Origin: an uncultured Burkholderiales bacterium
GTDB taxonomy: Bacteria > Actinomycetota > Acidimicrobiia > IMCC26256 > BP-133
Assembly: GCA_964502185.1 (NCBI GenBank)
Contig: CAZCVW010000004.1
Span: forward strand, 1-32,350
Length of the DNA: 32,350 nt
Direction: 5' to 3'
Position numbers and translations under genes: made by a program. Under the pieces are notes generated by a model. That model worked only from the letters and a program-made list of their open reading frames with translations. It did not search any database and was not told where the DNA came from. Of this stretch, positions 14,382 through 17,539 are shown piece by piece. The first letter of the stretch is position 1. Every line of letters begins with the position of its first letter.

Positions 14382-15002
14382 ATGACCGGGGCCGACATTG
14401 AGGACACCAGGTACGCCGTCCTGAGCACGATCGTGTTCAAGAAAATGGCGACGGCGGGGGCGGTGGCCAACGCTACGGCCGTCGACCTCGATACGGTGCG
14501 GGCGGTCCTCGACGACCTGGAGTCGTCCGGAGCGGTGTTCCGGGCCGAGGACCAGGCCTTCCCCACCGAGATCGCCGAGAAGCAGGTCCGGGAGTACGCC
14601 GACAGCCGCTACGGGGCCGTGCGGAGCGACCCGGCCGTCGAGCGCTGGATGGCCCGCTTCGAGACACAGAACCGGCATTTCCTGGAGACTGTCTCGGCCT
14701 GGCAGCAGATCGACGCCGGCGGCAAGAAGGTGGCGAACGACCACACCGATCCGGAGTACGACGCCCATGTCCTCGCCCGCGTCGACGCCACGCTGGCCCG
14801 GATGGGCAAGCTCATCGACGAGCTGGCGACCAAGGTGCCCCGGGTCGCCCGCTACGGGGAGCGGCTGCAGGAGGCCTTCGACAAGGTCGACGCCGGCGAC
14901 CCCCGCTACCTCTCCGATCCGACGATCGACTCGGTGCACAACATCTGGTTCGAGCTTCACGAGGACATCCTCGTCATCCTGGGAAAGGAGCGGCTCGAGT
15001 GA
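14382..15002 (+). CDS. Winged-helix-like N-terminal domain protein of unknown family, paralogue B (high-GC copy); translationally coupled to the PPDK-like gene
   Basis: ATG 14382 follows a GGGGGGA RBS. It is a paralogue of 13539..14105. Its TGA stop (15000-15002) overlaps GTG 14999 of the next gene. Confidence 0.7.
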   Translation: MTGADIEDTRYAVLSTIVFKKMATAGAVANATAVDLDTVRAVLDDLESSGAVFRAEDQAFPTEIAEKQVREYADSRYGAVRSDPAVERWMARFETQNRHFLETVSAWQQIDAGGKKVANDHTDPEYDAHVLARVDATLARMGKLIDELATKVPRVARYGERLQEAFDKVDAGDPRYLSDPTIDSVHNIWFELHEDILVILGKERLE

Positions 15003-15181
15003 CTTCCCGCTCGGCCGGGACTGGCTCGGCCGGCCCGACGCTCGTCTACCGCTTCGAGGACGCCGACGCCTCCCAGCCGGGGCTCTTCGGGGGCAAGGGA
15101 GCGGGGCTCGCCCGGATGACCGCCGCCGGCCTACCGGTACCGCCGGGATTCGTCATCACCACCGAAGCGTGTCGCGCCTTC
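14919..15181 (+). repeat. Imperfect direct repeat, copy 2 (pairs with 14022..14284)
   Basis: See copy 1. This copy spans the paralogue B / PPDK-like gene junction. Confidence 0.8.
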
Positions 15182-17539
15182 ATGGCCAACGGGGCGGTCC
15201 CCGAGGGCTTGATCGAAGACGTCCACCGGCATCTGGCCGAGCTGGAGCAGACGACCGGGCGGCGCTTCGGGGGCGGACCGACGCCGCTCCTCGTGTCGGT
15301 ACGGTCCGGGGCCCCCATCTCGATGCCGGGGATGATGGACACGATCCTGAACCTCGGACTCAGCCAGGAGGCGGCCGTCGCCCTGGCCGCCGCCACTGGT
15401 GACGTCGCCTTCATGGCCGACGTCTACAGCCGGTTCTACCGCATGTTCGCCGACATCGTGCTGGGGGGCGGTGGCGACGCCGTCACCGAGGCCGCCGGCC
15501 CGATCCGGGCGGCGATTACGCCCAGCTCCGATGCCACCGCCGTGTTCTCCGAACTCCAGGCGGCGTGCCGGCAGGCGACGCTCGACGAGGTCGGCGACGC
15601 CGTCCCCGACGACCCGTACGAGCAGCTCGAGCGGGCCATCGGCGCCGTGTTCGAGTCATGGAACTCCCGCCGGGCCGTCACCTACCGTCGGTTCCACAAG
15701 ATCGCCGACGACCTGGGCACCGCCGTGGTCATCCAGACGATGGTGTTCGGCAACCTCGGACAGACATCGGGCACCGGGGTGGCGTTCACCCGTGACCCTC
15801 TCACCGGGGAACCGACCCTCTACGGCGAGTACCTCGAAGGGGCCCAGGGCGAGGACGTGGTGGCGGGCACGTCGACGCCCGCCACCCTGGCGCAGGCGGC
15901 CGAGCGGATGCCGGAGGTGTTCGCCGAGTTCACCCGGGTGGCCCAAGAGTTGGAGAGCGTCTACCGCGACGTGGTCGACATCGAGTTCACCGTGGAGCGG
16001 GGGAAGCTCTACCTGCTGCAGGTCCGCAGCGCCAAGCGCACGGCCGAGGCGGCCATCCGGATCGCCGCCGATTTCCTGCGTGACCGCAAGGTTGCGCCGG
16101 CGGAGGCGCTGGCCAAGGTCTCGACGGAGCAGATCCGCCAGGCCGAGCGGCCCAGCTTCGAGACGGCGGCGGTGGCCGCCGCCCGACAGGCCGGGGCGCT
16201 GGCGTCCGGCATCGGGGCGTCGCCGGGACAAGTGAGCGGGATCGTCGTGGTCGACCCCGACCGGGCGGTCGAGGTGGCCGCCACCGGCGAGTCGGTGATC
16301 CTGGCCCGGCCGACCACGAGCCCGCTCGACCTCCACGGAATGATCGCCGCTACCGGGATCGTAACCGCCCTCGGCGGCGCCACCAGCCACGCCGCGGTGG
16401 TGGCCAGGGCGCTGGGAAAGCCCTGCGTGGTCGGCTGCGCCGACGTCGAGATCGATCTCGACGGGCGTGGCTTCCGGGTAGGTGAACGTTCATTCGCGGA
16501 GGGCGATCCCGTCTCCATCGACGGCGCCAGCGGCGAAATCTTCGCCGGCCGGCTGCCGACGACGCAAGTGGAGCTGTCGGGGGCGGACCTGGCGGAAGTG
16601 CTGGGCGTGGCCGACGACGCCGCCCGTTGCCGCCTCTTCGGGCGGGCGACGACGCCCGAGCAGGTGAAGAGCGTGCTCGACCGGGGCGTGCAGGCCATCG
16701 CCACCCGTCTCGGGGACGTGCTCGCCACCACCGGGCACCTCGAGGAGCTCATCGCTCTCCTCGTCGCCCACGAAGTCGACGGGACCAAACTGGACGGCTT
16801 CGAGGAGATCATCGCCGACGTCCTCACGCCCGTCCTCCTGGCGGCCGGCGAGGCCGACATCGTCGTCCGGGCCGTCGACCTCTCTTCCGACGAGGCGATG
16901 GAGCTTCTCGACGCGCCGGCCCTCCTGGCGCGACACCCCCGCTTCCACCTGCCCCTAGGAGTGCCGGAGTTCCTGACCATCCAGGTCGCCGGGTTAGCCC
17001 TGGCCGCCAAGCGCAGCGGCCACCCCCGGCCGCCCCAGCTGAGCGTCCGCCACGTGACCGATCCCAACGAGGCGCAGGAGATCCAGCGGATCGCCCGGGA
17101 AGAGCTGCTCCGGCGGGGGCTCGGTCCGGTGCTCGTGGGACCGACGCTCACGAGCCCCCGGGCCGCTCAACTCGCCCCCGAGATCGCCCGGTACAGCGAC
17201 CTCATCTGGCTCGAGGTCCGGGGCCTCCAGGCCAAGCTCTACGGGTACCCGGCGAGCCTGTGGTTCACCGGTGACCCGCTCGACGAGTACGTCCGGAAAC
17301 GGATGCTCTCGAGCGACCCGCGGGCCACGATGGACGAGTCGATGCGCGTGCTCCTCGCCTCGGTGGCGACGGCGCGGATCTCGAACCCGGGCTGCCGAGT
17401 AGGCGTGCGGCTGAGCGGCCCGGTGTCAGAGGAGCTGGCCGCCGGCTTCTACCGACTCGGGTTCCGCACCTTCGCCGTCGACGCCGACGAAGTGCGGACG
17501 GCGCGGCTGGCCTTCGGCAAGGCGGCGCTTTCGGAGTGA
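14999..17539 (+). CDS. Pyruvate,phosphate dikinase-like protein: intact ATP-grasp and phosphohistidine domains, degenerate PEP/pyruvate-binding domain
   Basis: N-terminal PPDK signatures are present (FGGKGAGLARMTAAGLPVPPGFVITTEAC; PLLVSVRSGAPISMPGMMDTILNLGL; GTGVAFTRDPLTGE; DIEFTVERGKLYLLQVRSAKRT). The swivel domain is present (GGATSHAAVVARALGKPCVVGC). The C-terminal third is collinear with the PPDK TIM barrel but lacks its catalytic motifs (see findings). Confidence 0.85.
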   Translation: MTSRSAGTGSAGPTLVYRFEDADASQPGLFGGKGAGLARMTAAGLPVPPGFVITTEACRAFMANGAVPEGLIEDVHRHLAELEQTTGRRFGGGPTPLLVSVRSGAPISMPGMMDTILNLGLSQEAAVALAAATGDVAFMADVYSRFYRMFADIVLGGGGDAVTEAAGPIRAAITPSSDATAVFSELQAACRQATLDEVGDAVPDDPYEQLERAIGAVFESWNSRRAVTYRRFHKIADDLGTAVVIQTMVFGNLGQTSGTGVAFTRDPLTGEPTLYGEYLEGAQGEDVVAGTSTPATLAQAAERMPEVFAEFTRVAQELESVYRDVVDIEFTVERGKLYLLQVRSAKRTAEAAIRIAADFLRDRKVAPAEALAKVSTEQIRQAERPSFETAAVAAARQAGALASGIGASPGQVSGIVVVDPDRAVEVAATGESVILARPTTSPLDLHGMIAATGIVTALGGATSHAAVVARALGKPCVVGCADVEIDLDGRGFRVGERSFAEGDPVSIDGASGEIFAGRLPTTQVELSGADLAEVLGVADDAARCRLFGRATTPEQVKSVLDRGVQAIATRLGDVLATTGHLEELIALLVAHEVDGTKLDGFEEIIADVLTPVLLAAGEADIVVRAVDLSSDEAMELLDAPALLARHPRFHLPLGVPEFLTIQVAGLALAAKRSGHPRPPQLSVRHVTDPNEAQEIQRIAREELLRRGLGPVLVGPTLTSPRAAQLAPEIARYSDLIWLEVRGLQAKLYGYPASLWFTGDPLDEYVRKRMLSSDPRATMDESMRVLLASVATARISNPGCRVGVRLSGPVSEELAAGFYRLGFRTFAVDADEVRTARLAFGKAALSE

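Follow-up and report, generated by a model that had tools for sequence, protein, structure and literature searches.

The stretch of DNA analysed here (hereafter the window) comprises 32,350 nucleotides (nt) of contig CAZCVW010000004.1, from assembly GCA_964502185.1 of an uncultured bacterium assigned by GTDB to the Acidimicrobiia. Judged by homology, the window is a 2-hydroxyisobutyrate island encoding a predicted 2-hydroxyacyl-CoA lyase (HACL), a 2-hydroxyisobutyrate-CoA ligase (HCL) and the mutase HcmAB, and near its middle it carries the gene for a protein derived from pyruvate, phosphate dikinase (PPDK), referred to below as the kinase (Table 1). An initial annotation of this gene proposed that the kinase keeps the ATP-grasp and phosphohistidine domains of PPDK and has lost the catalytic motifs of the domain that interconverts pyruvate and phosphoenolpyruvate (PEP). 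The gene starts with GTG and overlaps by 4 nt (GTGA) the stop codon of the upstream gene, which encodes a partner protein of ~200 amino acids (aa) termed p206. The same overlap between a ~200-aa gene and the kinase start occurs in three related loci (L001, L003 and L004), and it indicates that p206 and the kinase are translationally coupled.

Table 1 Features of the window, with positions in nt and the evidence or closest similarity for each
Feature	Position	Strand	Evidence or remarks
HACL, actinobacterial type	2728..4530	-	NF058623, 744 bits (cut-off 600)
Second B12-dependent mutase set	4541-6639 (large subunit 4996-6639)	-	Large subunit 47% identical to HcmA
PaaK-type ligase	9432..10859	+	51% identical to the Methylibium PM1 AMP-binding gene in the hcl position of the hcm operon (HCL)
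418-aa partner (418/476-aa family)	11154..12410	+	89.6% identical to a Methylibium PM1 megaplasmid protein
152-aa protein	12487..12945	+	Type-B cassette only; no family match
Stand-alone swivel protein, 159 aa	12967..13446	+	Catalytic Ser-His kept (GTPESHLGI)
p204, second ~200-aa paralogue (~190 aa)	13533..14105	+	81% identical to L001, 45% to a PM1 'MarR family' protein
p206, ~200-aa partner	14382..15002	+	49% identical to the type-A partner
PPDK-derived (VadK-like) kinase	14999..17539	+	846 aa, stop codon included; NF004531 and TIGR01828 scores
ATP-grasp (nucleotide and Pi/PPi) domain of the kinase	15044..16168	+	Residues 16-390, motifs intact; alignment to PDB 1kbl and 9pzl; Pfam PPDK_N
Swivel phosphohistidine domain of the kinase	16169..16588	+	Residues 391-530; catalytic His464 at nt 16388-16390
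Remodelled TIM barrel of the kinase	16631..17536	+	Residues 545-846; hhalign, motif table, AF2 and Foldseek, dN/dS
Tandem histidine-phosphatase protein (His_Phos_1 x2)	18854..20368	+	Downstream of the kinase in type-B loci
Ldh_2 oxidoreductase	20581..21675	+	65.5% identical to the gene beside the PM1 PPDK-like gene
B12-dependent acyl-CoA mutase set 1	Large subunit 23631-25421, MeaB 25337-26311, B12 subunit 26308-27075	-	66%, 49% and 62% identical to PM1 HcmA, MeaB and HcmB
Second thiamine-diphosphate enzyme, distinct from HACL	29336-31087		Adjoins the Y_phosphatase3 gene; 33% identical to a PM1 thiamine-diphosphate protein
Y_phosphatase3 protein	31104..32150	-	Recurrent kinase neighbour in other loci

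Over its N-terminal two-thirds the kinase follows PPDK almost motif for motif, as had been recognised in the initial annotation. Residues 16-568 align with residues 4-557 of the Clostridium symbiosum enzyme (phmmer against solved structures, E 2e-142), and the ATP-grasp motifs GGKG, RSGAxxSMPGMMDT and EFT...LQxR are identical to those of that enzyme, as is the catalytic Thr-Ser-His motif GGATSHAAVVAR that carries His464. Domain order and fold are shared with canonical PPDKs (C. symbiosum 1KBL/1DIK and maize 1VBH), to which the N-terminal 550 residues are about 45-50% identical. Pfam detects PPDK_N (157 bits) and the PEP-utilizers swivel domain PF00391 (78 bits) in the kinase, and no match to PEP-utilizers_C (PF02896). 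Against the canonical-PPDK model TIGR01828 (EC 2.7.9.1) the kinase scores 636 bits, below the equivalog cut-off of 843, and against the equivalogs for rifampin phosphotransferase, PigC and PEP synthase it reaches 62-119 bits, with cut-offs of 598-1350. The model that it passes is NCBIfam NF004531/PRK05878 (549.9 bits with a cut-off of 456, residues 16-592), which we take to represent the family of Mycobacterium tuberculosis Rv1127c (VadK).

The C-terminal third of the kinase is a true collinear homologue of the PEP/pyruvate barrel of PPDK, as had been read from the sequence at the outset. A single-sequence phmmer comparison aligns the C-terminal 170 residues collinearly with PPDK at 16 bits only. 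Comparing the barrels of the 118 family members described below with 27 canonical barrels (hhalign) returns a probability of 99.9% and E 1e-32 over 316 columns, and an exhaustive barrel-profile search of 1.84 billion representative sequences reached the barrels of canonical ~870-aa PPDKs at E 1e-13 to 1e-18. The structural model of this domain that the initial annotation had called for, built with AlphaFold2 (AF2), is an eight-stranded beta/alpha barrel (predicted local distance difference test (pLDDT) 92, predicted template modelling score (pTM) 0.89) that superposes on canonical barrels at a template modelling score (TM) of about 0.8. In Foldseek the PDB structures closest to this model are PPDK barrels (TM 0.76-0.83, E 1e-13), and PEP synthase and Enzyme I rank next. 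When the barrel served as the only query of a word-indexed search, eight matches came back and the domain appeared nearly unique, an impression that the full-length and exhaustive profile searches expose as a filter artefact.

Within this shared fold most of the catalytic residues have been replaced. From C. symbiosum PPDK to the window protein, E745 becomes T718, N768 becomes R741, D769 becomes G742 and C831 becomes R804, and the same placement is obtained with phmmer, with MAFFT on 118 sequences and with hhalign; the residues are therefore replaced rather than conserved at shifted positions. Four of the six residues of the PEP, Mg and proton-transfer set (R561, R617, E745, N768, D769 and C831) are lost in this way, and the PPLHEF loop has lost about 28 aa relative to PPDK. 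The loss is less complete than first described: the LCRTEHMF motif is indeed replaced, but Arg561 itself is kept as R570, and R624 (=Arg617) and D627 (=Asp620) are retained as well. With both Mg ligands, Asn768 and the Cys proton donor gone, the predicted active site cannot support phosphoryl transfer from the swivel to pyruvate, which upholds the earlier view that the kinase does not interconvert pyruvate and PEP. The kinase has the ATP-grasp domain, Thr-Ser-His swivel and barrel fold of PPDK and lacks its full catalytic set, a sufficient TIGR01828 score and the PF02896 domain; judged by these family-wide replacements and the TIGR01828 score, it cannot be a canonical PPDK.

Members of the family, where named by their sources, are called 'pyruvate, phosphate dikinase', and the Ldh_2 and His_Phos neighbours in the window would fit a route from lactate through pyruvate to PEP. 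Both points would suit an ordinary gluconeogenic PPDK served by an Ldh-type dehydrogenase and a phosphoglycerate mutase-like phosphatase, with catalytic residues merely shifted in the alignment. We reject this reading because the catalytic residues are lost, all three alignment methods placing T, R, G and R at the four positions, and regard it as wholly improbable given also that the score falls short of the TIGR01828 cut-off and PF02896 is not detected. PPDK flux was likewise absent in M. tuberculosis, though the VadK form of that organism lacks the barrel (PMC13400623). The genome and metagenome label 'pyruvate, phosphate dikinase' is thus almost certainly wrong for this family, a misannotation that distorts metabolic reconstructions.

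The rebuilt barrel is a trait of a family and not a sign of decay, so that the initial observation holds more generally than for one sequence. A full-length search returned 8000 PPDK-type matches, of which the best 120 contain 117 proteins of full length (49-88% identical); their sources are Pseudonocardia, Amycolatopsis, Acidimicrobiia, Dormibacterota and numerous metagenomes. When these were aligned with the window protein, the replacement motifs T-S-P-R-G/A, W-x-[ED]-x-R-x-L, D-P-R, G-x-R-L-x-G and G-F-R-x-F-A-V-D were present in 118/118 sequences, all with an intact reading frame. Ratios of nonsynonymous to synonymous substitution (dN/dS, Nei-Gojobori) against four close relatives lie at 0.15-0.21 in the barrel, compared with 0.16-0.20 in the ATP-grasp domain and 0.13-0.23 in the swivel; as the barrel value equals that of the catalytic domains, the barrel is kept by purifying selection. 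The existence of truncated relatives (VadK and forms of 522-570 aa) and of frameshifts in the close relatives L001 and L002 might suggest an inert relic under loss, or even a pseudogene, but the intact frames, the dN/dS values, the confident AF2 model and the conserved family-specific motifs make this very improbable.

The two interrupted relatives differ in their lesions, L001 (9880-10060) having a 47-nt deletion in the swivel-barrel linker and L002 (930-1260) a 1-nt deletion just behind the codon for the catalytic His; the lesions reflect either errors of assembly or inactivation of the gene in progress. A natural two-gene form (536 + 291 aa) considered for the same loci resolved, on DNA alignment, into frameshifts or assembly errors and was not used as evidence.

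The closest characterised relative of the kinase is VadK, a 490-aa PPDK derivative without the barrel that uses ATP and Mg to phosphorylate its own His422 (Pascoe et al., EMBO Rep 2026; PMC13400623). [quoted passage not shown] Like VadK, the kinase joins an ATP-grasp domain to a Thr-Ser-His swivel and appears unable to run the pyruvate/PEP half-reaction, and a comparable operonic partner of ~200 aa may be shared by the two, co-purifying in the case of Rv1126c and translationally coupled in that of p206. VadK and other short forms (about 490-570 aa) are barrel-less, whereas the 846-aa kinase of the window has a complete rebuilt barrel of 300 residues and is accompanied by a second swivel and a 418/476-aa protein in a 2-hydroxyisobutyrate island, not beside prpDC; no methylcitrate-cycle gene prpD or prpC is present in the 32-kb window. 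The kinase is thus the full-length, barrel-retaining member of the VadK-type PPDK branch, and VadK looks like a truncated derivative of the full-length, rebuilt-barrel family, which places a virulence kinase of M. tuberculosis in the evolutionary and mechanistic frame of a large and environmentally widespread group. The intact ATP-grasp and Thr-Ser-His motifs, the NF004531 match and the VadK experiment make ATP-dependent autophosphorylation of His464 very probable, in line with the initial expectation.

In every complete locus examined, the kinase is the last gene of a fixed set. Such module loci span Actinomycetota, Acidimicrobiia, Dormibacterota and Paraburkholderia, with L007-L009 partial or rearranged, and follow two orders. 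Type A runs from a stand-alone swivel (~139 aa) through a 476-aa and a ~200-aa protein to the kinase, and type B from a 418-aa protein through the 152-aa protein, the 159-aa swivel and the ~190-aa p204 to the kinase. Type B was seen in the window, in L001 and in part in L007-L009, and the additional paralogue p206 in the window and L007. The catalytic Ser-His is retained in the stand-alone swivels. The 418-aa and 476-aa types are 33% identical and form a family of 'hypothetical proteins' only, with no sequence match in Pfam, NCBIfam or PDB; PDB profile searches with this family and with the ~200-aa family gave nothing significant. The AF2 model of the 418-aa protein (pLDDT 86, pTM 0.88) found no match among PDB folds in Foldseek (best E 0.5, TM <= 0.14), and its scattered helix-grip/SRPBCC matches, with a probability of 0.06 or less, were disregarded. 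Genes for phosphatases (His_Phos, HAD, Y_phosphatase3, SurE) and for catabolism are repeatedly found near the module, of which our literature searches found no published description.

Several smaller features of the module genes were noted. Between the HCL-like ligase and the 418-aa gene, positions 10983-11048 of the window hold a 22-codon relic of a type-A swivel, SGKIQEYILLVQGGTTTFLAPG, flanked by stop codons and 82% identical to swivels from Pseudonocardia and metagenome-assembled genomes, which suggests that the type-B cassette is derived from the type-A order of swivel followed by the 476-aa gene. The 3' tail of the stand-alone swivel gene (13361-13443) contains a 30-bp unit perfectly duplicated in tandem (2.0 copies) and overlapped by an 18-bp repeat, together encoding a low-complexity, SADGSV-rich tail that type-A swivels do not have. 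DUF7064/DUF7065 proteins (a weak Rv3169-family match) and a HAD hydrolase recur beside the module in L003, L004, L005, L018, L019, L027 and L028, from Actinomycetota, mycobacterial plasmids and Paraburkholderia.

The components of the module also occur in fused form and with barrel-less kinases. A 793-aa 'PEP-utilizing enzyme' on plasmid pROB02 of Rhodococcus opacus B4 (WP_043827458.1) unites a swivel (18-110), a 476-family region (177-588) and a ~200-aa domain (606-789), and shares its locus with a 570-aa barrel-less kinase. Plasmids of M. avium and M. branderi encode a barrel-less kinase of 522-542 aa and, immediately after it, a full-length protein of the ~200-aa family (hidden Markov model (HMM) E 1e-33 to 1e-36), the same order as Rv1127c and Rv1126c, with another swivel-bearing protein and a DUF7064/7065 protein nearby. 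In Streptomyces atratus the ~200-aa gene lies directly upstream of a 548-aa kinase, the HMM values for the members in these three species together being E 1e-33 to 1e-38. The barrel HMM found no match in the short kinases of R. opacus, M. avium, M. branderi and S. atratus. These fusions and barrel-less loci identify the ~200-aa protein as the universal companion of this kinase branch, the barrel as dispensable in some lineages, and a second swivel joined to a variable domain as the usual third component. By analogy with the M. avium and M. branderi operons, Rv1126c is probably itself a member of the ~200-aa p206 family, and the full-length family with its fixed partner set provides testable hypotheses on the phosphorylation targets of VadK.

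A further fusion, the metagenomic protein P0260, links a ~200-aa domain and a swivel to a fully canonical PEP barrel. In L020 (4387-8193, JGI 3300051099) and L021 it lies in a terpene-synthase/SDR cluster and adjoins a 601-aa protein composed of Rph_4th and a swivel, a set that looks like a PEP-driven counterpart of the ATP-driven module.

We posit, with a probability of roughly one half, that the kinase is the ATP-charged phosphohistidine donor subunit of a conserved multi-protein module and serves its partner proteins, a donor role for which the conserved synteny and the partner fusions argue. In the mechanism that we envisage, the ATP-grasp domain would use ATP to phosphorylate His464 of the swivel, the stand-alone swivel would receive the phosphoryl group with mediation by the ~200-aa partner (p206/p204) and pass it onward, and the 418/476-aa protein would likely supply the final acceptor site, whether for binding or catalysis. 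The barrel would act as a non-PEP scaffold for dimerisation, docking or anion sensing through an Arg-rich, metal-free pocket, and not as the site of transfer. The acceptor would most likely be, from context only, a small hydroxy or carbonyl intermediate of 2-hydroxyisobutyrate, tert-butyl or C3 catabolism, or else a regulatory protein target.

The initial annotation had left two destinations for the phosphoryl group, a partner protein or a non-pyruvate acceptor bound in the remodelled barrel. The former is favoured by the fusions and by the conserved neighbourhood of the kinase, which includes another His-bearing swivel and two additional proteins, while the latter becomes less likely because the metal ligands are gone, barrel-less forms share the same partners, and three of the new Arg residues are missing from the orthologue of Methylibium petroleiphilum PM1. 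In its specific form, the barrel would be a new active site in which phosphorylated His464 acts on the enol of acetone, acetol or a hydroxy acid such as 2-hydroxyisobutyrate, with new Arg residues taking the place of Mg. Purifying selection on the barrel would be expected of such a site, the new near-invariant R741, R804 and R684 (aligned strand) align with canonical PEP/pyruvate-site residues, R624 and D627 are retained, and the genomic context yields acetone (through HACL) and hydroxy acids. Yet both metal ligands of all characterised PPDK, PEP synthase and Enzyme I barrels are lost, kinases without any barrel occur with the same partner families in R. opacus, mycobacteria and Streptomyces, R570 is absent from most type-A and more distant members, and the PM1 orthologue lacks R684, R776 and R804, its barrel being 31% identical against 57% for the N-terminal part. 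We consider this reading unlikely. The related idea of an enol-phosphorylating ketone dikinase, raised in the initial annotation, is compatible with the context (acetone from HACL, and a MimR_N regulator in the Millisia locus), which does not single out a ketone, and it is pure speculation.

Several points count against a donor subunit that serves partner proteins. To our knowledge, His-to-His transfer between two swivel domains is without direct precedent in the PPDK/PEP synthase family. The acceptor-site role of the 418-aa protein is a guess, since that protein has no recognisable active site or fold, and about 24 kb separates the accessory cassette from the kinase within the PM1 island. A catalytic role of the barrel itself is conceivable in view of its strong conservation and of the Arg, Trp and Asp residues that are new and invariant in it. 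Finally, the faint winged helix-turn-helix (wHTH) signal of the ~200-aa protein, located in p204 at the N-terminus, and the MarR labels given to some members of this family by NCBI would fit a regulatory output.

That last observation leads to an alternative that we hold to be possible though doubtful, namely a regulatory phosphorelay in which the phosphohistidine passes to the swivel and/or the wHTH-like ~200-aa protein, with the 418/476-aa protein as a ligand sensor that controls a 2-hydroxyisobutyrate or microcompartment pathway at the level of expression or of activity. The regulatory function described for VadK, with its binding to methylcitrate-cycle enzymes (PMC13400623), is consistent with a relay, as is the resemblance of P0260 to an Enzyme-I-type protein with an N-terminal sensor or output domain. 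Several ~200-aa members are named MarR or 'transcriptional regulator' by NCBI, and the family gives weak wHTH matches (MarR_2 at 20 bits, MarR/MotA/TFE entries of PDB at E 0.1-0.6 and, for the R. opacus fusion, TrmB at 21 bits), although every one of these scores lies under its curated threshold. Moreover, the loci already have dedicated regulators (PucR/GAF and GntR in the window, and MimR_N), several phosphatases and small-molecule kinases co-occur with the module, and in L005 the module is embedded in a microcompartment operon, surrounded by genes for enzymes and shell proteins. Other loci exchange the swivel-bearing domains (the 601-aa Rph_4th protein and proteins of 503-543 aa) in a manner that looks like an exchange of substrate modules. 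Recycling of AMP and PPi on behalf of the neighbouring CoA ligase was also considered as a function and was not adopted.

The proposed donor module can be compared with several known phosphohistidine systems. The phenylphosphate synthase of Thauera aromatica, reported by Schmeling et al. in 2004, is said to be a split dikinase derived from PEP synthase, with ATP-binding, His-carrying and stimulating accessory proteins, and reportedly phosphorylates a non-pyruvate acceptor and so readies it for later chemistry. That system differs in having one phosphohistidine domain rather than two and a CBS-domain accessory protein, and it is not known to possess a dead barrel or homologues of the 418/476-aa and ~200-aa families. 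The window has no CBS-domain protein among its genes, and its kinase fuses the ATP-grasp and swivel domains, with an extra stand-alone swivel. Rifampin phosphotransferase and PigC-RedH likewise combine an ATP-grasp domain with a swivel His, through which phosphate reaches a substrate held by a non-barrel domain, and L020, as described above, pairs an Rph_4th and swivel protein with a ~200-aa-domain fusion; these enzymes, however, are single chains with a single swivel, and the kinase scores 62-80 bits against their cut-offs of 999-1350. A conceptual likeness exists to the transfer from Enzyme I to HPr in the phosphotransferase system (PTS), where the swivel His of a barrel protein passes phosphate to a second His protein through a docking domain. 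There, in contrast, the donor is PEP in an active barrel and HPr has no relationship to swivel domains; the window contains no PTS components.

In the genomic context of the kinase, the actinobacterial HACL yields acetone and formyl-CoA (PMC7176365), and the presence of the lyase together with two B12-dependent mutase sets indicates that the island has both mutase and lyase routes for 2-hydroxyisobutyryl-CoA. The methyl tert-butyl ether (MTBE) megaplasmid of M. petroleiphilum PM1 has gene content in common with the island: a type-B cassette adjoins hcmB-hcl-meaB-hcmA, and the PPDK-like gene, 24 kb from the cassette, lies beside Ldh_2, His_Phos, Y_phosphatase3 and a Rieske oxygenase with PDR/VanB reductase. 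The block at 8186-14105 of the window (a 379-aa membrane-like protein, the ligase, the 418-aa, 152-aa and swivel proteins and p204) has a GC content of 0.56-0.66 and a third-position GC content (GC3) of 0.69-0.85, below the GC3 of 0.91-0.93 of p206 and the kinase. Together with the 89.6% identity of the 418-aa protein to PM1 WP_011831855.1, this indicates recent inter-phylum transfer between Betaproteobacteria and the actinobacterial lineage.

Type-A modules, in turn, flank microcompartment loci with EutN, BMC-H, AldDH, EutJ, BMC-T, MDH-like and Zn-ADH genes, whose predicted content matches the MIC1 type. MIC1 microcompartments are described as having no signature enzyme; the HMM lists of the microcompartment catalogue do not include PF01326 or PF00391, and in Rhodococcus S2-17, which is listed among the MIC1 carriers, the module is adjacent. 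Nothing relevant came from literature searches that sought a dikinase in loci for microcompartments, in acetone and propane regulons or in Methylibium, or that used the PM1 locus tags. The module thus recurs in the PM1 MTBE megaplasmid, in 2-hydroxyisobutyrate clusters of the lyase and mutase types and beside MIC1 metabolosomes. We tentatively raise the more far-reaching idea, itself rather less than probable, that the kinase and its three partners would constitute a new modular class of ATP-driven His-to-His phosphotransfer to a small non-pyruvate metabolite, would be the signature enzyme of MIC1 and would provide an ATP-dependent step in tert-butyl alcohol, 2-hydroxyisobutyrate or acetone catabolism, with VadK-Rv1126c as a stripped-down remnant. 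Once solved, the chemistry of the module could bring to light a catabolic step that is new and depends on phosphorylation, as well as a new protein fold.

Downstream of the kinase, the interval before the tandem His_Phos gene (17577-18850) contains a weak DUF455-like (ferritin-like) gene and a Rieske ferredoxin gene, a pair also found in L002 and L007 and not in L001, L008 and L009, which by its predicted domains could be a di-iron oxygenase pair. The long opposite-strand open reading frames (ORFs) at 17547-18503(-), 18320-20251(-) and 27047-29098(-) are high-GC artefacts; the true start of the last, nominally 683 aa, probably lies much later, because only its C-terminal 230 residues match a ZupT-type zinc transporter.

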